Part shown: positions 10,372 to 23,956 of the stretch, in pieces
How the letters are laid out: every line of letters begins with the position of its first letter
How positions within the stretch are numbered: position 1 is the stretch's first letter
DNA from: Vicinamibacteria bacterium
Lineage (GTDB): Bacteria; Acidobacteriota; Vicinamibacteria; Marinacidobacterales; Marinacidobacteraceae
Length of the DNA: 64,000 nt
NCBI GenBank assembly: GCA_963555995.3
Contig: OY821641.1
Location: 3,296,001 to 3,360,000, forward strand
Reading direction: 5' to 3'
Translations under genes and position numbers: made by a program
Notes under the pieces: model-generated
Database searches by the model: none
The model's input: only the letters and a program-made list of their open reading frames with translations
Told to the model about the DNA's origin: nothing

Positions 10372-10387
10372 CTCGGGTCGCGGGCGT

Positions 10388-10430
10388 TTGACATGATTTT
10401 CCCTAATTTCTATAGTTACGAGGATGTCAA
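10388..10430 (+). promoter_or_regulatory. Sigma70-type promoter of the RES TA operon with a flanking inverted repeat, probably leaderless
   Basis: TTGACA (10388-10393), 17-bp spacer, TATAGT (10411-10416), ATG 7 nt later. TTGACAT (10388) and ATGTCAA (10424) form an inverted repeat. Confidence 0.7.
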
Positions 10431-11122
10431 GTCACAAGACGCAGTCGGGGATGCCCTTGCCGGAGTCCCTGATCAGCGTTGGCCTCGACGCTGACGACCT
10501 TCGGGCGCTCCCGGAAACGCTTCGTGAGCAATGTGGCGTGCTCTGGGAAGGGCCTTCGGGGGACTGGACCCTGGTGGGCACCCGCGACACGGAACTGGCG
10601 CAGCTCCTCCGGAGGGTCCTTACCCGTCTGGAACCGATGGCGGCCATGCACCGCCGGAGACTCAGCGAGCGCAACATTGATCTCTTGTTGGAGAGCATTC
10701 TCGCCGACGCTCCGCGAGACGACGTTCACGCCGTGCTCGAGTTGGACAACGCCAAGCTGCGGGCCGACTACGTGGAGGAGACACGGTTGCTCACCGGGGC
10801 CGAGGTTCGCGCCGCGTCGGGCCTCAGCCCGAAAAACGCCAGCGAACCGGCCTCGCGCTGGAAGCGCGAGGGGCGAATCTTCGCGGTTCGCCACGGCGGG
10901 CGAGACCTCTACCCGGCGTTCCAGTTCGCCGATGGCCAACCGAGGTCCGTCATCAAGAGCATCCTTGCCGTGATGCCATCGTCGGCGACACCCTGGCAGA
11001 TTGCGCTGTGGTTCGCCTCCGGCAACGGCTGGCTGGACGGCGCCGAACCTCAAGAATGCCTCGATGCCGCGGAGCAGCTCGTTGAAGCGGCCCGCGACTT
11101 CGCCAATCCGGTCGAGGGCTAG
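10424..11122 (+). CDS. Xre/MbcA/ParS-like antitoxin
   Basis: HTH-like region with SRWKREGRIFAV...YPAFQF and C-terminal WFASGNGWLDGAEP, upstream of a RES gene. Confidence 0.75.
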   Translation: MSSHKTQSGMPLPESLISVGLDADDLRALPETLREQCGVLWEGPSGDWTLVGTRDTELAQLLRRVLTRLEPMAAMHRRRLSERNIDLLLESILADAPRDDVHAVLELDNAKLRADYVEETRLLTGAEVRAASGLSPKNASEPASRWKREGRIFAVRHGGRDLYPAFQFADGQPRSVIKSILAVMPSSATPWQIALWFASGNGWLDGAEPQECLDAAEQLVEAARDFANPVEG

Positions 11123-11301
11123 CAGCCTGTGGTGCAACTCACGCGGCTTTCGACGCCCGCTGAATCCCCGCTGAAACGCTCGCTTGCAGCTCGCTCATCG
11201 TTGCGCTTCGGTCGAAATACACCCGGTATTCCTCCCTTGCGCGCCTTGTCAGCGAGGCCCCGCGGGCGTCTCGGTCCTCACGCCAGTTCCACCACAGGCT
11301 G
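11123..11301. mobile_element. 179-bp MITE-like element (CAGCCTGTGG family, distant member)
   Basis: Terminal inverted repeat tagCAGCCTGTGGTGcAACT / AGTTcCACCACAGGCTGcta (19/20 match). Flanks are CTAG and CTAA. No transposase. Confidence 0.8.
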
Positions 11302-11319
11302 CTAACCGAGGCGCGGATC

Positions 11320-11955
11320 GTGACGATCCCGAAGCCTTCCGGACACCTGGCGCCCCCCAATCCCAGGATTCTGGAGTCCGGGACCGTGCTGCACCGGATC
11401 CATGATCGGAGCCGGTCGCCCAACGCCTTCAATCCGTGTCGGGGGAGGCCAACGCGCTTCGCGCCCATCGCGGACGCCAAAGGACGGTGCGTACCTTCCC
11501 TCTATGCGGGAAGCACCTTTGATTCCGCCGCCTACGAAACGCTGTTCCGCGGCATCCCCGTACACACGCAACGGAAGACCGCTCCTCTCTCCGCGGTGAT
11601 CAGCCGCGCTCACGGCACCTTCCAGACGCTGCGGGACCTCACGCTCGCTTCGCTGCGAGCTCCCGATCTCGCGAGATGGGGGGTGTCGCGGCACGCGCTG
11701 ATCGCGTCTTCGCCCCAGCACTACCAAGAGACCGCCGCTTGGGCGAAGGCGATCCATGACCAGTGTCCGCGCATCGAGGGCCTCGTATGGACCTCCAGCC
11801 AGTGCGATCCAGACGACGCCTATCTCTTCTTCGGGGACCGCGTTCGCCCCGAGGACCTGCGAATCGTCTCCGTCCGGGACGGCTCGAGTGATCCTGCGTT
11901 CCTCGCCGATGTGCGGCTGGCCGGACAGCGCGCCGGCATCACCATCGTGATTTGA
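11320..11955 (+). CDS. RES-domain toxin (NAD+-targeting family)
   Basis: Conserved R (PTRF), LY, E (AAYETLF) and S (GLVWTSSQ) residues of the RES domain. Confidence 0.88.
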   Translation: MTIPKPSGHLAPPNPRILESGTVLHRIHDRSRSPNAFNPCRGRPTRFAPIADAKGRCVPSLYAGSTFDSAAYETLFRGIPVHTQRKTAPLSAVISRAHGTFQTLRDLTLASLRAPDLARWGVSRHALIASSPQHYQETAAWAKAIHDQCPRIEGLVWTSSQCDPDDAYLFFGDRVRPEDLRIVSVRDGSSDPAFLADVRLAGQRAGITIVI

Positions 11956-12102
11956 TCAGGCGAGTTGCGAGAGCAGCGCCAGCGCCGGGGCGACCCGGAT
12001 CCCGTCGAGGGTTTGATCGTCCTTCTGTCCGGTGCCGGAAATCTGCAATACGGCAGTTTTCACCCCCGGTCCAAATTTGCCGCGGCAGATTTGGATCGCG
12101 GG

Positions 12103-13011
12103 TCAGATTTGCCGTGCTCCGTCCGCGATGTTGATTCCCGCGATGTCCTCGCAGTAGCGGGCGATGGCGGCGTGGTCCTCGCGGGCGTGGCCGTTCTCCA
12201 CCAGCGTCTTCACGAACTGGCGGACGACGGTGGTGACCGGGATCGGACTCCCGTTCTGGGCCGCCGCGGCCAGAGCGTTGTTGAGGTCCTTGAGATGGAG
12301 TTCGAGGCGGAAGCCCGGCTTCCAGTCGCCCGCGATCATCTTCCCGGCCTTGGCGTTCAGCACCGCGCTCCCCGCGAGGCCCCCCTCGATGGCGGACACC
12401 ACCACCCGCGGATCGAGACCGGAGCGAACGGCAAAGACGAGCGCCTCGCCCACGGCCTGGATGTTCGCGGCCACGATCATCTGGTTCGCGATCTTCACCG
12501 TGTTGCCGGCGCCCACCGGGCCGCAGAGGACCGCGCTCTTGCCGAGGACATCGAACACGGGACCCAGCGCCTCGAAGGCGGCCTCCTCGCCTCCCGCCAT
12601 GATCGCGAGCTCCCCGGCGATGGCGCCGGGCTCTCCGCCGCTCACCGGCGCATCCACGAACCCGACGCCGCGCTCGCCGGCGGCGGCGGCGATCTTTCGG
12701 GAAACCCCGGGCTCGATCGAGGACATGTCCGTCACCAGCGCCGGAAGTTCCGGGGCGGCGAGGACGCCCTTCGGGCCGAGCATCACGAGCTCCGAGTCGG
12801 GCGAATCCGGCAGCATCAGGATGACCGCATCCCGTCCGCTCGCGCATTCGGCGCCCGACCCGGCGCGCCGAGCGCCCGCGGCCACCAGTTCGTCCACCGG
12901 CCCCGGCGAGCGGCTGTGGACCGTGAGGTCATACCCGGCAGCCAGCAGATTCTTCGCCATGGGCTTGCCCATGACCCCGAGACCAATGAACCCGATGGAG
13001 TGGAGCGGCAT
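12103..13011 (-). CDS. 2-hydroxy-3-oxopropionate reductase / beta-hydroxyacid dehydrogenase (GarR/GlxR family)
   Basis: IGFIGLGVMGKPMA, DAPVSGG, VKIANQ, F..LHLKDL motifs. Confidence 0.9.
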   Translation of the reverse strand: MPLHSIGFIGLGVMGKPMAKNLLAAGYDLTVHSRSPGPVDELVAAGARRAGSGAECASGRDAVILMLPDSPDSELVMLGPKGVLAAPELPALVTDMSSIEPGVSRKIAAAAGERGVGFVDAPVSGGEPGAIAGELAIMAGGEEAAFEALGPVFDVLGKSAVLCGPVGAGNTVKIANQMIVAANIQAVGEALVFAVRSGLDPRVVVSAIEGGLAGSAVLNAKAGKMIAGDWKPGFRLELHLKDLNNALAAAAQNGSPIPVTTVVRQFVKTLVENGHAREDHAAIARYCEDIAGINIADGARQI

Positions 13012-13093
13012 GACGGGCGAGGCTACCAGCCCGCGGAAAACCCGCGCGGCGCAGTTGCTGTGAGAATGCAGTCTCGCTCGCCCGCCAAACCGC

Positions 13094-13492
13094 TGCACTC
13101 GCCGGGTCTTCGGACGGGAACTTCACGCACTACCGGGGCCTCCCCGCCGTGGACTCCATGCATTAGGTCACCCGGTTGGCCCGGACTCCATGCACTCGCC
13201 GGATCTTGGGACGGGAACTCCACGCACTACGAGGACCTGCCGGCCGCGAACTCCATGCATTCGCTGACCCGGTTGGCCCGAACTCCATGCACTTGCCGGG
13301 TCTTCGGACGGGAACTCCACGCACTACCGGGGCCTGCCCGCCGTGGACTCCATGCACTAGGTCACCCGGTTGGCCCGAACTCCATGCACTCGCCGAGTCC
13401 TCGGACGGGAACTCCACGCACTACCGGGGTCTTCCGGCCATGGACTCCATGCATTCGCTGACCCGGTTGGCCCGAACTCCATGCACTCGCCG
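13094..13492. repeat. Hierarchical tandem repeat: 13-bp core RACTCCAYGCAYT every 32-33 bp, 97-bp higher-order unit, about 4 copies
   Basis: TGCACTYGCC recurs at 13094, 13191, 13288, 13385 and 13482 (period 97). There are 12 full cores plus one partial, with three recurring linker types. Confidence 0.95.
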
Positions 13493-13529
13493 AACTCATC
13501 CTCCACCTCCGAATGGCGCCGTCGGGGGT

Positions 13530-13574
13530 GGCCCCGTTCTGGATGTCGCCATACGGCCCCGTTTTGGATGTCGC
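13530..13574. repeat. 20-bp direct repeat GGCCCCGTTYTGGATGTCGC, two copies
   Basis: Copies at 13530-13549 and 13555-13574, inside the same element. Confidence 0.8.
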
Positions 13575-13689
13575 TTGGCAGGTGGGGGGTAGCGACGCTC
13601 ACGGGGGTTTCACCGCAGACGGGTACAGCCGCCCGCCGGTCTCATTCGGGATAGCCTTCGGAGTCCGCCTCGCGGCAGAAGGAGACCAG

Positions 13690-14022
13690 GTGAGCCACTA
13701 CTACGAGGACCACGACCTGTCCCGCTTCGGCGAGATGGGCCGCAACGCTCCCGAACTCTGGGACAAGTTCAACGACTGGTACCAAGCCACGTTCAAGGAG
13801 GGATCGCTGACCGGGCGGGAGAAGGCGCTGATCGCCCTGGGCGTGGCGCACGCCCTCCAGTGTCCCTACTGCATTGACGCCTGGTCGCAGGAGTGCCTCG
13901 AGAAGGGGTCGAACCTCGACCAGATGACGGAAGCGGTCCACGTCGCGGCGGCCATCCGGGGCGGGGCGGCCCTGGTGCACGGGGTGCAGATGCGGAAACG
14001 GAACGACGAGCTGAGCATGTGA
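13690..14022 (+). CDS. AhpD/carboxymuconolactone-decarboxylase-family protein (arsenosugar-associated peroxidase-like)
   Basis: REKALIALGVAHALQCPYCID motif. AAGGAG RBS precedes the GTG; its stop overlaps the arsS start. Confidence 0.88.
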   Translation: MSHYYEDHDLSRFGEMGRNAPELWDKFNDWYQATFKEGSLTGREKALIALGVAHALQCPYCIDAWSQECLEKGSNLDQMTEAVHVAAAIRGGAALVHGVQMRKRNDELSM

Positions 14023-15044
14023 TGGAGGCTCTCCTCGAACTCCCGACCCGGAACGGGCGCCGGGCGCCCCGCCCGGTCAGCGAGCAGCGGTTTCCCTCCT
14101 TCGATTCCCGGCTCGCGCGCCACGGACTCCACCCCCTCCGCGCCACCGGCATCGAGGTCTTCCAGATCAACGTCGGCAAGCTCTGCAACCAGACGTGCCG
14201 GCACTGCCACGTGGACGCCGGACCGGACCGCAGCGAGCGCATGACCCGCGAGACGGCCGAGGCCTGCATCCGGGCGCTGGAGCGGACGGACGCCCACACC
14301 GTGGACATCACCGGCGGCGCCCCCGAGCTGAACGAGAACTTCCGCTACCTGGTGGACGCCTCCCGCGCCCTCGGACGCCACGTGATGGACCGGTCCAACC
14401 TGACCGTGCTGCTGCTCCGGTCCCAGGCGGACCTCGCCGGATTCCTCGCCGAGCACGAAGTGGAGGTCATCGCCAGCCTCCCCTACTTCCTGGCGGAGCG
14501 CACCGACGCCCAACGCGGGGAGGGCGTCTTCGACAGGTCCATCGAGGCGCTCCGCCTCCTGAACCGCCTGGGGTACGGCCAGGGCGGCAAGCTGCGGCTC
14601 AACCTGGTTTACAACCCGACGGGCGCGTTCCTGCCCGGCGACCAGGACGCACTCGAGCGGGAGTTCAAGCGCGAGCTCGACCGGCGGTACCGGATTCACT
14701 TCGACCGCCTCTACACGATCACGAACATGCCGATCAGCCGCTTCCTCGACTTCCTGCTCGAGAGCGGCAACTACGAGAGGTACATGGAGCGGCTGGTGAA
14801 CGCGTTCAATCCGGCGGCGGCCGAGGCCGTGATGTGCCGCAACACCCTCTCGGTGGGCTGGGACGGGCAGCTCTACGACTGCGACTTCAACCAGATGCTG
14901 GAGGACACCGTGGGGTTCGGGGCGCCCACGCACGTCCGCGACTTCTCGGCGGACCTGCTGGCGAAGCGGCGCATCGTGACCGGTCTTCACTGTTACGGCT
15001 GCACCGCCGGCGCCGGCTCCAGTTGCGGAGGGACCACCGCTTGA
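14022..15044 (+). CDS. arsS: Radical SAM protein, ArsS (arsenosugar biosynthesis)/DUF3641 family
   Basis: CNQTCRHCHV (CxxxCxxC), DITGGAPELN, MCRNTLSV...YDCDFNQM, and C-terminal HCYGCTAGAGSSCGG. Confidence 0.88.
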   Translation: MEALLELPTRNGRRAPRPVSEQRFPSFDSRLARHGLHPLRATGIEVFQINVGKLCNQTCRHCHVDAGPDRSERMTRETAEACIRALERTDAHTVDITGGAPELNENFRYLVDASRALGRHVMDRSNLTVLLLRSQADLAGFLAEHEVEVIASLPYFLAERTDAQRGEGVFDRSIEALRLLNRLGYGQGGKLRLNLVYNPTGAFLPGDQDALEREFKRELDRRYRIHFDRLYTITNMPISRFLDFLLESGNYERYMERLVNAFNPAAAEAVMCRNTLSVGWDGQLYDCDFNQMLEDTVGFGAPTHVRDFSADLLAKRRIVTGLHCYGCTAGAGSSCGGTTA

Positions 15045-16138
15045 ACCGAACGGCGCGGGCGGCGGTGCTGGCCGCGCCGGGACGCCCCGCCGAACTCCGG
15101 GAGTTTCCGCTCCCCGCACCGGAGCCCGGGGAAATCCTGCTGGAAACCCTCGCTTCCGAGGTGTGCGGAACGGACGTCCATCTCCGCGAGGGCCGGCTCG
15201 CCGGCGTTCCCTACCCGATCATCCCGGGACACGTGAGCGTCGGCCGGGTCGCGGAGACGAACGGCGTCACCCGGGACGCCGCCGGAAACCCGCTCGGCGC
15301 GGGCAGCGTGGTGTCCTTCTTCGACGTCCACGCCACCTGCCACGCCTGCTACCAGTGCCTGGTGGCGCGCCAGCCGAACCGGTGTCCGTCCCGCCGGGTC
15401 TATGGCATCACCTATTCCGCGGAAGAAGGGTTGCTCGGGGGCTGGGCCGAGAACATCCTGCTGCTCCCCGGAGTCCGGACGGTGGTGCTTCCCGGCGAGC
15501 TTTCGGTGGACGACCTGATCGGCGGCGGGTGCGGGCTCTTCACCGGGTTCGCCGCGGTGGACCGGGCCGACATCCGTCTCGGCGAGAGCGTGGTGGTGCA
15601 GGGCGTCGGCCCGGTGGGGCTCGCGGCCATCGCCTTCGCCCGGACGTCCGGCGCCGGCGCGGTGGTGGCGGTCGGGGAGCCGGCGGCGCGCCGCGAGCTC
15701 GCCCGCCGCATGGGCGCGGACGAGTCCCTGGCGCTGGCGGAGACCGATGCGGACGACCGGGTTCAGCAAGTGCGGGCCGCCACCGGGGGACGCGGCGCCG
15801 ATGTGGTCATCGAGGCGAGCGGGAATCCGCAGGCGGTACCGGAGGGTTTCGCCATGCTGCGCGACGGGGGCCGCTACGTCGTCGTGGGGCACTACACCGA
15901 CGCCGGCGCCGTGCCGGTGAACCCCCACGTGGACATCAACCGCAAGCACGCGGAGGTCCGCGGCCAGTGGGGCAGCGAGTTCCATCACTGGACCCGGGCG
16001 CTGGACACCCTGGTCCGCTACCGGGAGCGGATCCCGTTCGCCGAGGTGATCGGCCGCCGCTACCGGCTCGAGGAGGCCAACCAGGCGCTCGACGACGTGG
16101 AGGCGCTCCGGGTGACCAAGGCGATCATCGTCCCGTGA
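15041..16138 (+). CDS. Zinc-binding alcohol dehydrogenase (MDR family)
   Basis: CGTD, PGH, structural Zn site CHACYQC...C, GVGPVG. TTG start overlaps the arsS stop (TTGA). Confidence 0.88.
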   Translation: MNRTARAAVLAAPGRPAELREFPLPAPEPGEILLETLASEVCGTDVHLREGRLAGVPYPIIPGHVSVGRVAETNGVTRDAAGNPLGAGSVVSFFDVHATCHACYQCLVARQPNRCPSRRVYGITYSAEEGLLGGWAENILLLPGVRTVVLPGELSVDDLIGGGCGLFTGFAAVDRADIRLGESVVVQGVGPVGLAAIAFARTSGAGAVVAVGEPAARRELARRMGADESLALAETDADDRVQQVRAATGGRGADVVIEASGNPQAVPEGFAMLRDGGRYVVVGHYTDAGAVPVNPHVDINRKHAEVRGQWGSEFHHWTRALDTLVRYRERIPFAEVIGRRYRLEEANQALDDVEALRVTKAIIVP

Positions 16139-16191
16139 GGCGCGTACCATCGCCGCAACCGGCACTCGATGCCGGAGATGGGGGATCGCTG

Positions 16192-17100
16192 ATGGCCGAA
16201 CGGGAGCGCCGGGACGAACCGGAGAACCTCGCCCGGGTGCGCGGCAGCCGGACCGCCGAGATCACGGCCGCCACCCGCGCCGGACACTTCGCGCACGGGG
16301 AGCCGCCGCTGGTCGTCGAGGACCCCTACGCGATCCACCTCGCCGGGGACCGCTGGCGGCGGATCATCGGCTCGCGTTTCCGCCACTGGCTGGTCACCCG
16401 CGTCCTGCTGCGGAAGCTCATGGGGAACGCCACCTACGTTCTCATCCGCGCCCGGTTCACCGACGACCGGGTCCTGGCGGCGGCGGAACGCGGGATGCGG
16501 CAACTGGTCATCCTGGGCGCCGGGTTCGACACCTTCGCGCTCCGGTATCCGGACCTGGGGGTCGAGGTGTTTGAAGTGGACCTGCCGGCGAGCGGCGCCC
16601 TGAAGCGGGAGAGGATGGCCGCCGCCGACCTCCCCGTTCCGCCGCACCTGCATTTCGTGAACGTGGATTTCGAGCGGGACGACCTCGGCGAACGACTCGG
16701 CGCCGCGGGCTTCCGCCCCGCCGAACCGGCGTTCTTCGCGTGGATGGGAGTGACCTTCTACCTCGTCCGCGAGGCCGTGCCGGCCACGCTGGCCCAGGTC
16801 CAGGCGCTCGCCGCCCCCGGCTCGGAGCTGGCGTTCGACTACATGAACCCGCGGGAGTCCGTTGCGGCCGGGGACCTCGCGGCCTTCGACGAGATGCTCC
16901 GCTTCGTCCGGAAACACGGGGAGCCGATGATCACGAGCTTCGATCCCGCGACCGTCACGGAGGACCTGGGGCTGGACGACGGCTGGGAAGTACTGGAACA
17001 CGAGTCCCCCGCCGAGAATCCGGAACGCATCCTGGGAGACCGCACCGACCTGCACCGCGCACCACCCCTCTTCCGCCTGCTGCACGTGCGAAAACGGTGA
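16192..17100 (+). CDS. Class I SAM-dependent methyltransferase (LCM/YktD-like), paralog 1
   Basis: EDPYA, RARFTDD, QLVILGAGFDT, FEVD, WMGVTFYL. Confidence 0.88.
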   Translation: MAERERRDEPENLARVRGSRTAEITAATRAGHFAHGEPPLVVEDPYAIHLAGDRWRRIIGSRFRHWLVTRVLLRKLMGNATYVLIRARFTDDRVLAAAERGMRQLVILGAGFDTFALRYPDLGVEVFEVDLPASGALKRERMAAADLPVPPHLHFVNVDFERDDLGERLGAAGFRPAEPAFFAWMGVTFYLVREAVPATLAQVQALAAPGSELAFDYMNPRESVAAGDLAAFDEMLRFVRKHGEPMITSFDPATVTEDLGLDDGWEVLEHESPAENPERILGDRTDLHRAPPLFRLLHVRKR

Positions 17101-17219
17101 GCAACCATTGCGGGTCGGCCGAACGTGTACTGCGAACGCCGGGGCGATAGCACCGCGCCGGAGCCGGTTCCGGGCCGTCACCCCGACGTCCGACAGGCCG
17201 TACCGGTAGGAGGCTGACC

Positions 17220-18128
17220 ATGGCTCGATCGGGACGCCGGAGCCGATCCCGGAACCTCGCGAGCGAAAGCGGCAGCGCTACCGCCGATTGGGTGGCGGCG
17301 GTGCGGGCGCTCCATTTCGTCGCGGGAGACAGGCCCCTCATCGTCGAGGATCCCTATGCGGTCCACCTCATCTCCAGGCCGGCGCGGCGGATCGTCTCCT
17401 CCAGGGTCCTCCGTTGGCTGTTTTCCCGCATCCTCCTGCGCAAACTCGCGCCGGGCGTGGCTTTCCTGCTCGTCCGGGCGCGGTTCACGGACGATCGGGT
17501 GGTAGCGGCCGCGGAGCGGGGCGTGCGGCAACTCGTGATTCTGGGTGCGGGGCTGGACACGTTCGCCCTCCGGTACCCGGAACTGGGGATCGAGGTGTTC
17601 GAAGCGGACCTGCCGGCGAGCGGCGTTCTGAAACGAAGAGCCCTGGCGGACGCGGGCCTCGGGATTCCCGATCACCTCCACTTCGTCAGCGTGGACTTCG
17701 AGCGCGACGATCTGCAGCAGCGGCTGGTCGCCGCAGGTTTCGCCCCACAGGAACCCGCCTTCTTCACCTGGATGGGGGTCACCTATTACCTGACACGGGA
17801 GGCGGTGCGCGGCACCCTCGCCAAGCTCGGCGAACTGGCGGCCCCCGGGTCGGAACTGACGCTCGATTACATGAACACGCGGGAATCCCTGCGCGAGGAA
17901 GATCTTTCGCTCTTCGACGCCAATCTTCGCTTCGTGGGCAGGGTCGGCGAGCCGATGCAGACCTTCTACCTGGCGGAGACCGTGACGGGGGACACCGGAC
18001 TCGAGAACGAATGGAAGGTGCTGGCGCACGAGTATCCGGCTGCTCAGCGGGAGCGCTACTTGGGGGATCGCACCGATCTGGATCAGATGTCGCCGCTCTT
18101 CCGACTGTTGCATGTGCGCCGGAAGTAG
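17220..18128 (+). CDS. Class I SAM-dependent methyltransferase (LCM/YktD-like), paralog 2
   Basis: Same motifs (QLVILGAGLDT, WMGVTYYL), colinear with paralog 1 along its full length. Confidence 0.9.
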   Translation: MARSGRRSRSRNLASESGSATADWVAAVRALHFVAGDRPLIVEDPYAVHLISRPARRIVSSRVLRWLFSRILLRKLAPGVAFLLVRARFTDDRVVAAAERGVRQLVILGAGLDTFALRYPELGIEVFEADLPASGVLKRRALADAGLGIPDHLHFVSVDFERDDLQQRLVAAGFAPQEPAFFTWMGVTYYLTREAVRGTLAKLGELAAPGSELTLDYMNTRESLREEDLSLFDANLRFVGRVGEPMQTFYLAETVTGDTGLENEWKVLAHEYPAAQRERYLGDRTDLDQMSPLFRLLHVRRK

Positions 18129-18223
18129 CCGAACGCAAGCCGGGACGCGCGGAGGATGCGCCAACCCGCGCCCGACCACAGGAACCGATTCACGCTCATG
18201 GCCCCATCCGGAAACCGCTCGAC

Positions 18224-18298
18224 GGGGTGGATGAGGGGACTCGAACCCCCAACCACCGGAACCACAATCCGGTGCTCTGCCGTTGAGCTACATCCACC
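18224..18298 (-). tRNA. tRNA-His(GTG)
   Basis: Cloverleaf; anticodon arm CCGGA-TTGTGGT-TCCGG; GGTTCGAG T-arm; G-1/C73. Confidence 0.95.
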
Positions 18299-18322
18299 AC
18301 CGTAGGGAAAGGCGGGCGACAC

Positions 18323-18399
18323 TGGCGCGCCAGGGAGGATTCGAACCCCCGACCCGCGGCTTAGAAGGCCGCCGCTCTGTCCAACTGAGCTACTGGCGC
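18323..18399 (-). tRNA. tRNA-Arg(TCT)
   Basis: Anticodon arm GCGGC-CTTCTAA-GCCGC; GGTTCGAAT; encoded CCA. Confidence 0.96.
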
Positions 18400-18451
18400 T
18401 CCCAAGCTTCGTGATCGGACCGGCCCCGAGCGACCGCCGAGCGACCGCTCG

Positions 18452-18525
18452 TCGGGGCGAGAGGATTTGAACCTCCGGCTTCCTGCTCCCAAAGCAGGCG
18501 CGCTGCCAGACTGCGCCACGCCCCG
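18452..18525 (-). tRNA. tRNA-Pro(TGG)
   Basis: CGGGGCG acceptor stem; anticodon arm CCTGC-TTTGGGA-GCAGG; GGTTCAAAT. Confidence 0.95.
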
Positions 18526-18530
18526 AGAAA

Positions 18531-19181
18531 CTAGTTGATTATAGGTTCTGGCGATCCGAGCGCAGCCTGCAGGAACCGCCGCACCGCCCGCAGCGCCCGG
18601 CCGCGATGGCTGATCCTCTCCTTTTCCGCGAGGGTCAGTTCAGCCATCGTCCTGCCGAACTCCGGCACGAGGAACACCGGGTCATAGCCGAAACCCCCGC
18701 TTCCCCGCGGAGCGTCGGCGATGCGTCCTTCCACCGTGCCCGTGGATCGGAAGACGATCCGGCCGGCGACCGCGATCGCAACCGCCGACCGGTATCGCGC
18801 TGCCCGTCCCTTGACCGGGTTCCGGTTCACGATTTCCAGCAGCCGCCGGTTTTTCTCCGCGTAGGGAGTGTCGCGCCCCAGCCAGCGCGCGGAACGGACC
18901 CCGGGAGCGCCGTCGAGGGCGTCCACCTCGAGGCCCGAGTCCTCGGCCAGCGCCGAAACCCCGGTAGCGGCCTGGTAGTGGAGCGCCTTGATGCCGGCGT
19001 TCGCCAGGAATCCCTCTCCCGTCTCTTCGGGCTCCTCGGACGCGGATCCCGGAAGATCGTCCAGACCGAGCCATCGGAGTCCCGTCGAGGCCAGGGCGGC
19101 CCGCATCTCCCGGACCTTCCCGGCATTCCCGGTAGCGAGCAGGATCCGCGGCGAGCGCAGCGGCGGTGGACCCGCTGCCAT
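18531..19181 (-). CDS. rdgB: Non-canonical purine NTP pyrophosphatase (RdgB/HAM1)
   Basis: ATGNAGK, EDSGL, PGVRSAR, GFGYDPVF, SHRGRA motifs. Confidence 0.95.
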   Translation of the reverse strand: MAAGPPPLRSPRILLATGNAGKVREMRAALASTGLRWLGLDDLPGSASEEPEETGEGFLANAGIKALHYQAATGVSALAEDSGLEVDALDGAPGVRSARWLGRDTPYAEKNRRLLEIVNRNPVKGRAARYRSAVAIAVAGRIVFRSTGTVEGRIADAPRGSGGFGYDPVFLVPEFGRTMAELTLAEKERISHRGRALRAVRRFLQAALGSPEPIIN

Positions 19182-19186
19182 GAGGA

Positions 19187-19921
19187 TCAGCGTCCTTCCG
19201 GCAAGGGGATCCCGGCCAGCACCGCACGCTGCCGCGCGGCCAGGGTGGCGATGCCCCCGAGCGCCGCGTCGAGGAGGTCGTCCAGAACCTCGCGCCGGAA
19301 CGGCGCCCCCTCGGCGGCGCCCTGGACTTCGATCAGGTCGCCCGCCGCGGTCGCCACCACTGTCAGGTCCACGGACGCCCGCGAGTCCTCGGCGTAGTCC
19401 AGGTCGAGGAGAGTCTCTCCATCCACGATTCCGACGCTTACCGCCGCAACCTGGCGGCGCAGCGGGTTCTCCGGCAGCTCGCCACGCCGGGAGAGCTGGT
19501 GAAACGCCAGGGCCAGCGCCACGAAGGCGCCGGTGATGGAAGCGGTCCGCGTGCCGCCGTCGGCCTCGATGACGTCGCAGTCCACCCGCACGGTCCTTTC
19601 GCCCAACCGGGAGAGGTCCACGGCGGCCCGCAGCGAACGGCCGATGAGCCGCTGGATCTCCGCCGTCCGTCCGGGGACTCCACCCCGGTCGCGGCGGATT
19701 CGTTCTCCCGAAGAGAGAGGCAGCATGCCGTACTCGGCGGTCAGCCAGCCGCGGCCCCGGCCGCGGAGCCACCCGGGCACCCCCTCCTCGATGCTGACCG
19801 CCGCGAGCACGCGCGTGTCGCCCTGGCGGACCAGCACCGAGGCGGGGGAACGGCGCAGGAAACCGGCCTCCAGCCCGCATTCCCGGATCTCCCGCGCGCC
19901 GCGGCCGCCGCGACGTTTCAC
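19187..19921 (-). CDS. rph: Ribonuclease PH
   Basis: GWLTAEYGMLP, EIQRLIGRSLRA, ADGGTRTASITG, DLDYAEDS. GTG start overlaps the upstream stop. Confidence 0.95.
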   Translation of the reverse strand: MKRRGGRGAREIRECGLEAGFLRRSPASVLVRQGDTRVLAAVSIEEGVPGWLRGRGRGWLTAEYGMLPLSSGERIRRDRGGVPGRTAEIQRLIGRSLRAAVDLSRLGERTVRVDCDVIEADGGTRTASITGAFVALALAFHQLSRRGELPENPLRRQVAAVSVGIVDGETLLDLDYAEDSRASVDLTVVATAAGDLIEVQGAAEGAPFRREVLDDLLDAALGGIATLAARQRAVLAGIPLPEGR

Positions 19922-20616
19922 CGGCGCCCGCCTGTCTCGGCAACCAGGCGGTCGGGGGCCCGGGCGAATCCCGAACGAAGGTCGAGATGTCCGGCGAGAG
20001 TCTCGGTCTGTTGCCCCTCGACCAACAACCGCACCTCGGCGATGGCCGGGATGCTCTCCACCAGCGTGTGACTCAGGCTGTAAACGGTCAGCTCTTCCGC
20101 ATGGAGGCCCCCGGAGTGCCTCTCGAGCAGGTCCAGCGTGAAATTGATGACAGCCACCCCGCGACCGCTCACGAACACGTCCAGCACCCGCACCCCTTCG
20201 GGGAAGGTCCCGGATTCCGCCACAACCCGCTCGACCAGGGCCTCCGCGCGGACCCGGGTGTCGGCAAGGTCGGGGAGTTCCACCTCCCGGGCGTGCAGCA
20301 GGCCGTCCGCGCCGACCGTGAACAGCGTCGCGGCGGAAGCTGCCTCCCGCGCCCTGGCGGCGGACGCCTCCGAACTCGTCCGGCCCCCGGCGAAGGCAGC
20401 GGCATCCGCCAGCGACGCGGGTGAAGCCGCCGGATCTTCGGCGGGCGCACCGCCGCCGCAGGCTGCGATTCCTGCCGCCCCGACCACCGGCAGGAGCGAC
20501 GTCAGCAGCCTGTGGTGAAACCCATGTGAGCGCCGAGGCCCCCACCGGGAGAACTGGGCCGCGTGGGTTTTGCCACAGGCTGTCAACCGCCCTCCGCGGC
20601 CGAATCCGCGCGTCAC
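19918..20616 (-). CDS. GerMN-domain lipoprotein with an in-frame MITE-like insertion in its signal peptide
   Basis: Lipobox GIAAC; GerMN-like EELTVYSLSHTL...VRLLVEG..ETLAGHLDL. GTG start overlaps the amidase stop (GTGA). Confidence 0.82.
   Translation of the reverse strand: MTRGFGRGGRLTACGKTHAAQFSRWGPRRSHGFHHRLLTSLLPVVGAAGIAACGGGAPAEDPAASPASLADAAAFAGGRTSSEASAARAREAASAATLFTVGADGLLHAREVELPDLADTRVRAEALVERVVAESGTFPEGVRVLDVFVSGRGVAVINFTLDLLERHSGGLHAEELTVYSLSHTLVESIPAIAEVRLLVEGQQTETLAGHLDLRSGFARAPDRLVAETGGRR
20506..20582. mobile_element. 77-bp minimal MITE-like element (CAGCCTGTGG family)
   Basis: Perfect CAGCCTGTGG/CCACAGGCTG termini with extended imperfect IR. Flanks are TCAG and TCAA. It consists only of the two ends found in the longer copies. 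Confidence 0.85.
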
Positions 20617-22100
20617 CGGAGCCCTCCGGTCGCCCGGAAGCCGGCCAGCGACCGCTGATAACGGGCCACTCCGGCCGCGAGGGCGCGGGCCGCCCGGTCC
20701 GGAAACCCCGGATCCCGCAGGCGAGCGAGATCGCCGGTGGAGGTCACGAACCCGAGTTCCACCTGGACCGCCGCCATCTCGGCGCCGCGCAGCACCCGCA
20801 CCGGCGCATCCGCGGTCCCGCCCGACCGGATGTTCAGCGCCTCGAGTTCCGCCGCCAACGCCTCGGCCAGTGACCGCGACGCGGGGACGAGCGGCGCCTG
20901 CGCGCCGTTCCAGGGCACGAAGTGAACGGCGCCTTCACGCGAGGCGCGGTCCGAGGCCTGCGGGGTGAGGTGGTACACCCGGCTCCCGGAGGCGGCCGGA
21001 CTGGGAGAAGCGTTCAGGTGGATGCTGATCAGCAGGTCGGCGCGGGCCATGTTCGCGGCCGCCACCCGATCGTCGAGCGCTACTTCGCGGTCCTGCTCCC
21101 GCGTCAGCACGACCCGAAACCCGTGCTGTTGTTCCAGCACGTCCCGCAGCGCGAGGGCCACCGACAGCGCAACGTCCTTCTCCGTCACACCGCCCCGGCC
21201 CGCAGCGCCGCGATCCGTTCCTCCGTGACCCGGGTCAATGGCGATGGTCCGGATGTCGGTGGGTCCGACCGGATCCCACTGAACACGATTTTCGGGAGAC
21301 GGCGTCACCGCCAGGACGTCCGCTCCCGAGGCGGCGCGCACGCCGGCCCGGATCAGATCCAGGGTCAGCAGGCCCGGGCCGCGTTCCTCCCGGAGACGCC
21401 CGTAGTTCCGTCCGGTCGCGATCTCGAGGGCGTAGGTGCTGCCGCGCCGGATGAGCTCCACCTGTTCCACCACCCCATCACGCGGCGTCGCCCGGACGAA
21501 TGCGGTTTCGACGAACGAGGTCCGCAGCATGACGGAGATTCCACGCGGGTACTCCTCAATCTCCATCGGTACCGGCGGGTCGGTGCGCACGACAACCCGG
21601 GTCGTTCCCGGACGGCTGGAGACGTCCACCTCGAACCGCGGGTACTCCTCACCGCTCACCAGGGTGCGGGCCTCGTCGTCGTACCGGTTGCGACCCGGAA
21701 GCAGGTCGGGCAGCACGGTCGCGACGAAGCCGAGCGGCACGAACCACTCGCCGCCCCGTCGAACGCTCGGGGTCCGGAGCACCCTGGTCGTGTCGCCCAC
21801 CATCACGAAACTGCGCCCGGCATCGAAACGGACCGTGCGGTCCGGCAATCGCAGGAGGACCTGGCGCTCGTTCTCGCCCGGCCGCATCGTGCCGCCGACC
21901 GCGCGGGCAACTTCGGCAAGGCGCACCATTTCGACGCCGCCGAGGCGCCGCACCGCGAGCGTGGACGTCTCCCCGTGATGAATGATCCAGAGTTCCCGGG
22001 GCCGCTGCGCAGCCGAAGCGGTGGACGGGAACGCCGGGACGACGGCCAGGCATCCCACCCCGAGCAGGAAAGACAGGAGGCCGGAGGCGCCGCGACGCAT
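20613..22100 (-). CDS. N-acetylmuramoyl-L-alanine amidase (Amidase_3)
   Basis: Signal peptide; IAIDPGHGG, EK, SIHLNAS, VELGF motifs. Confidence 0.92.
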   Translation of the reverse strand: MRRGASGLLSFLLGVGCLAVVPAFPSTASAAQRPRELWIIHHGETSTLAVRRLGGVEMVRLAEVARAVGGTMRPGENERQVLLRLPDRTVRFDAGRSFVMVGDTTRVLRTPSVRRGGEWFVPLGFVATVLPDLLPGRNRYDDEARTLVSGEEYPRFEVDVSSRPGTTRVVVRTDPPVPMEIEEYPRGISVMLRTSFVETAFVRATPRDGVVEQVELIRRGSTYALEIATGRNYGRLREERGPGLLTLDLIRAGVRAASGADVLAVTPSPENRVQWDPVGPTDIRTIAIDPGHGGTDRGAAGRGGVTEKDVALSVALALRDVLEQQHGFRVVLTREQDREVALDDRVAAANMARADLLISIHLNASPSPAASGSRVYHLTPQASDRASREGAVHFVPWNGAQAPLVPASRSLAEALAAELEALNIRSGGTADAPVRVLRGAEMAAVQVELGFVTSTGDLARLRDPGFPDRAARALAAGVARYQRSLAGFRATGGLR

Positions 22101-22231
22101 GAAAGGCTGCCGGAAAATCAGGAATGGACAGAATAGCGTTTCGAGGCTGGCAGCCTGTGGATGAAGTGACGTGAGCGCGCTCCCGGCGGGCGGACCGGTC
22201 GTGCGCCGGTCGCCCCCCCGGCGGGACGTAA

Positions 22232-22590
22232 CGGCCTGTGGCAAAACCCACGCGGTCCAGTTGCTGTGAAAATGCAGCCTGGGCGAAAGGCAGACGAGCG
22301 AAGTTGCGCCGCCGGCTGGGAGCGCCGGTCTTCATTCAGACCGGCACGCGCTGCGCGACAGCGCAGCGCACGGCACCACGCTGCCCTGCACGATGGCGGT
22401 CGACTCTTGTTCCATCACGGCAAAGAGCGCTACGACGTCCGCGGGCCTTCGGCCCGGCGTGCCGCTCTGAAGAGCGGCGCTCCCAGCGTTTCCGCCGTCT
22501 TCATGCCTGGCGGGGTGTGCGGGAGGACCGCACATGACGGTTTCTCCCGGTGGGGGCCTCGGAGCTCACGGGGGTTTCACCACGGGCGTT
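22232..22590. mobile_element. About 360-bp MITE-like element (CAGCCTGTGG family) with a REP-like doublet inside
   Basis: Left end cggcctgtggcaaaacccacgcggtccagtt and right end ttctcccggtgggggcctcggagctcacgggggtttcaccacggg closely match the reverse complement of 20506-20582. Confidence 0.82.
22315..22487. repeat. Inverted pair of REP-like palindromes (REPIN-like)
   Basis: GCTGGGAGCGCCGGTCTTCA(TTCA)GACCGGCACGC at 22315-22349 and the inverted copy GCGTGCCGCTCTGAAGAGCGGCGCTCCCAGC at 22457-22487. Each is itself a hairpin. Confidence 0.78.
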
Positions 22591-22621
22591 TACACCCGTT
22601 GCCGTAGAATCCGCCGCCCCT

Positions 22622-23956
22622 ATGGCAAGAACGGGATTTGCGGTCCAGCCCGCGGACGGTGGCCTCGTGGTGTTGCTCCCCGGTCTGGGGGCGGTCAGCA
22701 CCACCTTCATCGCGGGAATCCACGCGATCCGCAAGGGACTCGCGGCGCCCATCGGCTCGGTCACCCAGATGGGAACGATCCGGTTGGGCAAACGCACCGA
22801 GGGCCGAACCCCCCTGATTCGCGACTTCGTTCCCATCGTTCCCATCGGGGACCTCTCCTTCGCCGGCTGGGACGTGTTCGAGGACGACGCCTACACGGCA
22901 GCGCAGAAGGCGGGCGTGCTGGAACCGGCGCTGCTGGACGCGGTCCGGGAGGAGCTGGCGGCGATCCGTCCGATGCCCGCGGTCTTCGACCGCGACTACG
23001 TGAAGAAGCTCGACGGTTCGTTCGTGAAGGCGGGCGCCACCAAGATGGACCTTGCCGAACAGCTCATCGAGGACATCGAAGGAGCCCGGGAGACGTCGGG
23101 CGCTGCCCGGGCGGTGATGATCTGGTGCGGCTCCACCGAGACCTTCCTGAAGGAGACCCCGGTGCACCGGGATCTCGAGAGCTTCGAGCGCGGGCTCCGG
23201 GAGAACTCGCCGGACATCGCGCCCAGCATGATCTACGCCTACGCCGCCCTGCGCTGCGGCGTCCCGTACGCCAACGGCGCCCCGAACCTGAGCGCGGACA
23301 TTCCGGCGCTCCTGGAACTAGCGTCCACCGAGGGTGTTCCGGTCGGCGGCAAGGACTTCAAGACCGGGCAGACGCTGATGAAGACGATCCTGGCGCCGGG
23401 GCTGAAGGCGAGGATGCTGGGGCTCCGCGGCTGGTTCTCGACGAACATCCTCGGCAACCGGGACGGGGAAGTGCTCGACGACCCCGGCTCGTTCCGCACC
23501 AAGGAAGAGAGCAAGCTGAGCGTGCTGGAGTACATCCTCCAGCCGGACATGTATCCCGACCTCTACCGCGATCTCTACCACAAGGTGCGGATCAACTATT
23601 ACCCACCCCGCCGCGACAACAAGGAGGGCTGGGACAACATAGACATCTTCGGCTGGCTCGGCTACGAGATGCAGATCAAGGTGGATTTCCTCTGCCGGGA
23701 TTCCATCCTCGCCGCCCCGCTGGTGCTCGACCTCGCCCTCTTCCTCGACCTGGCCTCCCGCGCCGGCCTCCGGGGCATCCAGGAGTGGCTGTCGTTCTTC
23801 TTCAAGAGCCCGATGAGCCCGCCGGGGGTGTACCCCGAACACGACCTGTTCATCCAGCGGAAGAAGCTGACGAACACCCTCCGCTACCTGATGGGAGAAG
23901 AGGTCATCAGCCACCTCGGGGAATACACTCTCGAAACGAGGGAGACGTCCGACTGA
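22622..23956 (+). CDS. ino1: Myo-inositol-1-phosphate synthase
   Basis: PGLGAVSTT, GKDFKTGQT, NILGNRDG, DNKEGWD, RDSILAAPLVLDL, SFFFKSP. Confidence 0.93.
   Translation: MARTGFAVQPADGGLVVLLPGLGAVSTTFIAGIHAIRKGLAAPIGSVTQMGTIRLGKRTEGRTPLIRDFVPIVPIGDLSFAGWDVFEDDAYTAAQKAGVLEPALLDAVREELAAIRPMPAVFDRDYVKKLDGSFVKAGATKMDLAEQLIEDIEGARETSGAARAVMIWCGSTETFLKETPVHRDLESFERGLRENSPDIAPSMIYAYAALRCGVPYANGAPNLSADIPALLELASTEGVPVGGKDFKTGQTLMKTILAPGLKARMLGLRGWFSTNILGNRDGEVLDDPGSFRTKEESKLSVLEYILQPDMYPDLYRDLYHKVRINYYPPRRDNKEGWDNIDIFGWLGYEMQIKVDFLCRDSILAAPLVLDLALFLDLASRAGLRGIQEWLSFFFKSPMSPPGVYPEHDLFIQRKKLTNTLRYLMGEEVISHLGEYTLETRETSD

Follow-up and report, generated by a model that had tools for sequence, protein, structure and literature searches.

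Shared ends and unlike interiors: a MITE family, an 18-nt unit and a cassette with IS110-like ends in a Vicinamibacteria chromosome

How do short non-coding elements come to share both ends and to enclose unrelated interiors? The question is raised by four elements, E1 (11123–11301), E2 (13027–13622), E3 (20506–20582) and E4 (22232–22589), in the chromosome of a Vicinamibacteria bacterium (assembly GCA_963555995.3, contig OY821641.1). Positions refer to the window, i.e. the whole stretch of 64,000 nucleotides analysed, which is C1:3296001–3360000 of the 3.8-Mb chromosome (70% G+C). A preliminary description took them for a non-autonomous carrier element, capturing or nesting other repeats and bringing these to regulatory regions. 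Our reading, to which we assign a probability of about 0.7, is that E1 to E4 are four copies of one MITE (miniature inverted-repeat transposable element), termed family A; that three of them have lost their middle and carry an 18-nt unit, S, likely due to deletion between two S units; and that the cargo of the larger ones, C, a cassette of ~280 bp built on a doublet of repetitive extragenic palindromes (REP), was likely inserted by an RNA-guided IS110 recombinase.

The four elements and their parent repeat

All four elements are present where they were first located, and their parts are as follows.

11123–11301, plus strand: E1, full-length 179-bp MITE A; flanking 4-mers agree at three of four bases
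13027–13050, plus strand: E2, decayed left end of MITE A
13051–13071, plus strand: E2, left part of S, then the left terminus of C
13094–13492, no strand: E2, 97-bp tandem array, 4.1 copies, ~32-bp subunits
13490–13581, minus strand: E2, 92-bp stub of the end of another element, 84% to C1:2068262–2068353
13581–13622, plus strand: E2, S-right remnant (13581–13589) and decayed MITE A right end (13590–13622)
20506–20537, minus strand: E3, right 32 nt of MITE A
20538–20557, minus strand: E3, S (20540–20557) and its usual two following nt (20538–20539)
20558–20582, minus strand: E3, left 25 nt of MITE A
22151–22178, plus strand: lone right-end fragment of MITE A
22232–22262, plus strand: E4, left 25 nt of MITE A (22232–22256) and left 6 nt of S (22257–22262)
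22261–22262, plus strand: E4, putative crossover core, two T's
22263–22543, plus strand: E4, cassette C, 281 bp, an inverted REP doublet with REPs at 22319–22345 and 22461–22483; ends resemble IS110 ends of congeners
22544–22589, plus strand: E4, right part of S with a 2-nt tail (22544–22557) and right 32 nt of MITE A (22558–22589)

The lone right end (at ~22151–22178) is a fifth piece that had been overlooked. The whole chromosome was searched for MITE ends with profiles of both ends at a cut-off of 15 bits. Both ends are closely alike in E4 and the reversed E3, and those of E2 are decayed, the right one scoring 16.8 bits and the left one falling under the cut-off. The search returned 239 ends, as against 0 in the reversed genome, well beyond what chance would give; 180 of these form 90 inward-facing pairs, and 59 are single.

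Among the 90 pairs, 71 are 178–180 bp long, eight are 269–270 bp and three are 77 bp, and the remaining pairs have single sizes between 51 and 1149 bp. Because 71 of the 90 pairs have its length, E1, which had been set apart as sharing only the terminal inverted repeat, is the common form and hence the parent rather than an outlier. These 71 full-length copies are intergenic, contain no open reading frame (ORF) and have a median identity of 93% to the consensus. MITE A matches were obtained in 15 of 15 congeners and in 20 of the 24 family genomes examined, and the repeats of the window recur in records titled Acidobacteriota, Vicinamibacteria or Candidatus Marinacidobacterium.

Identical 4-bp flanks border 37 of the 71 full-length copies (shuffle mean 14.1, maximum 26; 5000 shuffles), the motif YTAR is found in 110 of 142 flanks, and 25 of the 71 copies adjoin a stop codon, E1 itself directly following the stop codon that ends an Xre/MbcA-like gene, ahead of a RES-domain gene. 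The earlier supposition of a non-autonomous element agrees with three identical 1515-bp insertion sequence (IS) elements elsewhere in the chromosome, which have the terminal repeat of MITE A, a 15-bp perfect repeat and a 4-bp duplication of their own each, and which encode a 475-amino-acid (aa) protein with DUF772 and DDE domains (PF05598 and PF01609 over cut-off, PF13751 slightly under). DUF772 and DDE domains, short terminal repeats and a short duplication are features of the IS1182 family, all of which were found in the 1515-bp element, its duplication being of 4 bp. Since its best NCBIfam match, to IS1182, stays under the cut-off, the element is classed as IS5/IS1182-like and not as a member of the family.

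Over at least 16 nt, 36 of the 239 MITE A ends are identical to those of the 1515-bp IS, and relatives of this IS at 64–83% identity occur in the related genomes G001, G004 and G008, with ends resembling MITE subfamilies (G000 denotes the source genome, other G numbers its relatives). The copies, duplications and shared ends suggest that the IS5/IS1182-like DDE transposase would act in trans on MITE A and place it in YTAR sites, often at stop codons. Other readings of the MITE were rejected: an internal-deletion derivative of the 1515-bp IS, as the interiors have no homology; an IS630-like element with a two-base TA duplication, as the three IS copies and 37 of the 49 MITEs with YTAR on both sides show 4-bp duplications; and an integron attC site, as its flanks might suggest, because an IS shares the ends (no integrase search was made).

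Empty orthologous sites were identified for E2 in 11, for E3 in 14 and for E4 in 11 of 14 congeners each. A full-length MITE in opposite orientation occupies the E2 site in three congeners, and three congeners have a MITE near, but not at, the E4 position.

The 269–270-bp subfamily (C1:1174907–1175175 in the source genome and seven similar copies) contains a separate hairpin insert of ~90 bp at position 29. Head-to-tail tandems in which two or three complete MITE copies have single 4-bp target sites in common are located at C1:1754220–1754764, 1812857–1813401 and 2893989–2894350. A second, more distant DUF772-type IS family of ~1.65 kb is present in many copies (loci L136, L141 and L143–L158 in G004, G008 and G001), with a strict 4-bp palindromic target, and is at times inserted at MITE ends.

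The 18-nt unit S

E3, which had been described as empty, contains S between its MITE ends. The exact 18-mer is present in all 16 genus genomes at 5 to 1288 copies, and S with one variant base allowed was detected in 22 of the 28 family genomes, as against 0 in the reversed control. Counts of S were 1444 in G013, 675 in G004, 630 in G001, 588 in G008, 225 in G018, 67 in G014 and 11 in the source genome. Three S-like matches lie in predicted genes (C1:663436, 807649 and 1127895), and the 18-mer has no stop in any frame.

Placement was sampled in 789 kb from three genomes and in the source chromosome. Of the 111 copies whose position in MITE A could be fixed from either side, 105 correspond to a net gain of 18 or 19 nt at eight sites; the remaining six are of other sizes, four of them being deletions between two such sites, and a ninth site was seen in further loci. 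S also occurs inside REP stems, inside S (tandem or nested) and at a few unique hairpins. It replaces 1–3 target bases without target duplication, and the same two bases follow it in 417 of 530 distinct copies. The structure and distribution of S lead us to infer an insertion mechanism in which the unit would enter about nine fixed sites of MITE A, REP stems and S itself.

One orthologous MITE copy is identical in G008 and G001 at 210 of 216 positions apart from four 18-nt units, which argues that S is gained, or precisely lost, in place. Because intact MITEs have single S units at the two positions where E3 is broken, a deletion between two S units is likely the simplest origin of the 77-bp form. 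E3 consists of the MITE left end, S and the MITE right end.

For this layer alone, it may be argued that S was inserted only a few times and was spread by MITE amplification and short-tract gene conversion between repeat copies, possibly driven by homing-like nicking of sites that are free of S. The surroundings of S accord with this, since 517 of 530 distinct copies lie at most 40 nt from a repeat motif as against 35% of random positions, in counts for which some loci had been fetched because they contain S; in addition, the sites used and the changes at their junctions are repeated in different species, and another IS110 clade inserts at the position that S uses in REPs. However, about nine MITE sites, several REP sites, S within S and a few unique hairpins obey one junction rule, and therefore a de novo insertion reaction should exist; furthermore, in the G008/G001 pair the locus-specific divergent flank is retained right up to S. 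Founder insertions spread in this way are rather unlikely, yet come next after IS110-type transfer.

As the mover of S, IS110-type single-strand transfer with a 2-nt core is our favoured candidate, tentatively held, because IS110 genes occur in all five S-rich genomes and the replacement of 2 nt without duplication fits this chemistry; copy-out, circles of single-stranded DNA and direct transfer of strands have been reported for IS110 (10.64898/2026.08.31.748434; 10.1101/2025.10.25.684509). Another enzyme is unlikely to be responsible. No S-moving enzyme was found among the candidates examined. Reverse transcriptase genes were found in none of one source genome (0/1) and in one of the five S-rich genomes; small GIY-YIG genes gave mostly one long-frame match per genome, with no S at the four short-frame loci checked; and DUF559 was found in 1 of 15 congeners only. 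The REP-associated tyrosine transposase (RAYT) was not found in the S-rich G013, G004 and G018, and S is near 1 of 18 RAYT loci. Of two long G008 candidates for a transposase between outer S ends, one was a gene of the host and the other an unrelated IS110 that lies within a REP. In 1.25 Mb of loci the right part of S continues only as S or C. Viral contigs gave two S matches in unrelated flanks, likely due to chance, and 11 matches to the left end of C. Literature searches, with most subscription papers as well as supplements and ISfinder outside their scope, returned no description of the repeat families described here, of an 18-bp unit, of its in-place gain or of its use as an IS110 target.

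A wider proposal, for which we would put the odds somewhat below even, is that S is a self-propagating mobile DNA of 18–20 nt, which serves as a landing pad for IS110 and as a recombination joint in a four-tier stack of IS, MITE, S and IS110 cassette. If this is true, S is among the smallest mobile DNAs known, enzymatically and repeatedly inserted into other repeats at up to ~1400 copies per genome, and turns MITEs into interchangeable cassette holders.

The cassette C and IS110 elements with similar ends

The repeat of ~280 bp within E4 is C, for which 89 left ends were identified in the source genome, most of them lacking the ends of a MITE. At its core, two copies of the REP that borders a RAYT gene in inverted arrays make up an inverted doublet, and this REP forms 1154 hairpins in the source genome; in agreement with REPs and REPINs, these hairpins are tetranucleotide-tagged and their doublets occur genome-wide. 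C splits S after its sixth base, with junction counts of 40 (S-left to C), 16 (C to S-right), 8 (S-left to S-right) and 8 (C to C); at a second target of C the junction counts were 7, 15 and 13. Two T's precede the left end of C in 69 of 89 cases and the other right-hand modules in 25 of 41 and 41 of 45. The circle-type C-to-C junction is present in head-to-tail tandems only, and the contigs of the sequencing runs contained no joint removing C from E4. As in IS110-dependent MITEs, the ends of C are homologous to IS110 ends and no transposase is enclosed; as for IS110 itself, the pattern is one of recombination at a 2-nt core without target duplication, with donor junction and empty target both in existence.

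IS110 elements were surveyed at 30 loci from the five S-rich genomes, and C-like ends were found on five copies of three distinct elements (1757–1767 bp). L503 and L481 are inserted inside S and L489 at another target, and L504 and L505 lie at an S–C junction within a MITE, at two S hot spots. The proteins of these C-type elements are 61–97% identical and exceed the cut-off of NF033542 (140 bits); that of L503 scores 256 bits and is over cut-off with PF01548 and PF02371 as well, in keeping with a DEDD + Transposase_20 recombinase. The end of L503 with its 25-nt flank matches 18 right ends of C in the source genome at 76–88%, and the layout of the C ends is the same as in L504 and L489. Intact homologues were identified in 3 of 15 congeners.

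When the 5′ non-coding regions were aligned, one motif tracked four target bases beside the core in all three elements, and a second motif followed the donor end, being equal to the end of C itself in L504 and L489. Such covariation with target and donor is the pattern described for bridge RNAs, the guides of which match both (PMC11208160). An RNA-guided IS110 recombinase likely brought C into S, an activity that we infer from the elements with C-like ends in S and from their covarying putative guides. The recombinase with its bridge RNA would recognise S as the target and the ends of C as the donor, and recombination at the two-T core would give filled, empty and tandem forms. E4 has the E3 arrangement with C inside S.

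A second IS110 clade inserts into REP stems (L609 in the source genome, C1:2025916–2029389; L479 and L492 in G008; L482 and L486 in G018), and the 5′ region of L609 contains motifs equal to the REP target on either side of a 2-nt core. At L110 in G008, a different insertion sequence interrupts a RAYT gene.

In E2 the order is MITE left end, left part of S, left end of C, tandem array, 92-bp stub, S-right remnant and MITE right end. The array is real, as had been stated (87% matches), and related arrays without MITE ends are present at C1:914426–914921 and 1141758–1142003, with matches in 8 of 15 congeners. The family of the 92-bp stub, which from its end pattern we label provisionally as IS21-like, is likewise found elsewhere without MITE ends. 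E2 may represent an E4-like copy that has decayed and was reshaped by additional insertions and deletions, in which the interior of C would have been replaced by a minisatellite and the end of another element. Long minisatellites with 15–35-bp subunits related to the 97-bp array occur at L373, L374 and L381 (G013 and G004), one of them adjoining an IS21-like end.

Several points weigh against the reading of E1 to E4 as MITE copies with S and an IS110-inserted cassette. In the MITE layer, the partner protein reaches only 146 bits with NF033551 (IS1182; cut-off 270), the interior of MITE A is unrelated to the 1515-bp IS, and close transposase homologues (>60%) turned up in no more than 3 of the 15 congeners, as against 15 of 15 for the MITE. 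As for S, the bases at its two junctions differ, many copies may have been amplified simply inside MITEs, none of the 5′ regions at 15 other IS110 loci contained motifs fitting the two outer ends of S, and in G018, with its 225 copies of S, neither exact C ends nor a C-type IS110 were found. The guide covariation concerns three elements and motifs of 4–8 nt; the left-donor motif fails to follow the end of the element that carries it, the donor motif of L504 has a one-base mismatch to its own end, and the consensus fold of four non-coding regions has little covariation support (6 of 61 pairs). Moreover, no intact C-type IS110 was found in the source genome, which holds only a 247-aa fragment at 46%, and more distant homologues (37–58%, 16 genomes) showed no such ends with the pattern used.

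A dedicated carrier, defined by two MITE ends that capture repeats and deliver them as units to regulatory regions, appears quite improbable. In its favour, three 77-bp forms and at least two forms of 350–358 bp stand at separate loci with both terminal repeats kept, two more 77-bp forms were found in metagenome contigs, the 4-mers flanking E3 agree at three of four bases, and a low-depth related strain in three sequencing runs is without E3. On the other hand, the two breakpoints coincide with hot spots of S in intact MITEs, whereby the short form can come about repeatedly in place, and plain MITE copies occupy the E2 site in congeners. The interiors are not private cargo either, as C, the array and the stub are each found at other places where MITE ends are absent, and most copies of C lack such ends; nesting of repeats is real, as had been noticed, but it is the guests that do the nesting, entering REPs and each other as well. 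E2 and E4 both lie in gaps between divergent genes, as had been pointed out. Throughout the chromosome, however, such gaps contain 4 of 24 hand-picked composites and 10 of 71 plain copies, compared with 365 divergent gaps among all 1578 (Fisher tests, p 0.63 and 0.08; 2809 genes called with a crude codon model of our own), and targeted delivery to divergent promoters is not indicated. Shared ends with swappable cargo can thus arise without a dedicated carrier.

That RAYT makes all the junctions, cutting at dinucleotides near REP hairpins, moving C and leaving S as a scar, is very improbable. TnpA-REP is known to cut at tetranucleotide-guided dinucleotides and to shuffle bacterial interspersed mosaic elements (BIMEs; PMC8266576 and PMC3333891), RAYT is present in 13 of 16 genus genomes, and the interior of C is a doublet of the abundant RAYT-flanking REP. 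Yet the three genomes in which RAYT was not found have 1444, 675 and 225 copies of S, S is plentiful in places where C is scarce or was not detected, and the ends of C belong to REP-less IS110 elements that sit in S. An assembly or sequencing artefact at hairpins can practically be dismissed: S does sit in hairpin-forming repeats and its top counts come from near-complete assemblies, but it is low in other complete genomes (G000 and G014), recurs with fixed variants in fragmented assemblies and metagenome contigs, and is split by natural IS110 and C insertions, and contigs from four sequencing runs cover E3 as assembled.

Neighbouring genes, meaning and comparison with known systems

The ORFs scanned at 7.4–24.8 kb of the window include no transposase, in line with the preliminary description, and the remainder of the window is mostly one giant frame. 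This open frame on the minus strand covers 24783–64000 of the window and continues beyond (about C1:3320783–3379642), with >13,000 aa (about 19,600 aa by gene call) and near-identical repeats of ~7 kb. It encodes a modular type I polyketide synthase, since a 999-aa piece contains KS, AT and DH domains. A Type I restriction R subunit gene is followed by the Xre/MbcA-like and RES-domain genes at 7396–11955, and E1 lies between the two genes of the latter, likely toxin–antitoxin, pair. A CMD-family gene and then an ArsS-type radical SAM gene (TIGR04167 over cut-off) are located at 13690–15044, and three tRNA genes on the minus strand at 18226–18525. With the covariance models of Rfam 15, the region 10500–23500 returned three tRNAs and one sub-threshold match, and no family for the repeats.

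Each of three parts, namely the MITE, the REP doublet and the IS110-dependent cassette, is a new member of a kind already known, and the MITE and REP layers are ordinary. What stands out is a fixed 18-nt unit gained in place inside repeats, at very different rates among congeners and with a constant junction rule; an insertion reaction for so short a DNA would mean either chemistry not known before or a known recombinase put to new use. The C-type elements, with their two-T core and three target variants with matching guide-like motifs, offer a natural and testable IS110 system that includes a non-autonomous donor and a high-copy target, and that bears on the choice of safe targets by bridge-RNA elements and on minimal donor requirements.

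MITEs are understood here in the general sense of PMC3852290. With MITEs of IS5/IS1182-type insertion sequences, MITE A shares the absence of an ORF, the IS terminal repeats, a short duplication, high copy number and similarity confined to fewer than 20 terminal bases. It differs in that its partner is below the NCBIfam cut-offs of both IS1182 and IS5, and in that its interior gathers S at fixed sites and is trimmed between them.

A close parallel to C is MITEPpu9/ISPpu9 of Pseudomonas putida (PMC12288879), an IS110-dependent MITE with several junction types, which has in common with C the IS-like end boxes, a 2-nt core, the combinations of junctions, tandems and a repeat as target. In contrast to MITEPpu9, the target of C is a spreading 18-nt insert instead of a REP, and the cargo is a REP doublet instead of a small RNA gene.

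IS621 (PMC11208160) and the C-type IS110 elements both have a DEDD recombinase, a longer left non-coding end and no target duplication, and the guide motifs of IS621 for target and donor, which include the core, have guide-like counterparts here. Unlike IS621, with its CT core, the core here is two T's, the putative bridge RNA is proposed from sequence motifs, an 8-bp inverted repeat is placed unevenly, ~4 nt away from one end and ~40 nt away from the opposite one, and the guide-like motifs fit the order of IS621 only when the strand opposite the transposase is taken as the top strand.

Compared with the REP, BIME and REPIN systems that accompany RAYT (PMC3333891 and PMC8266576), no such link was found for S, in view of the single locus among 18 mentioned above. 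The doublet of C, in turn, consists of the very REP that flanks the local RAYT gene and, unlike those systems, is enclosed by IS110-type ends.

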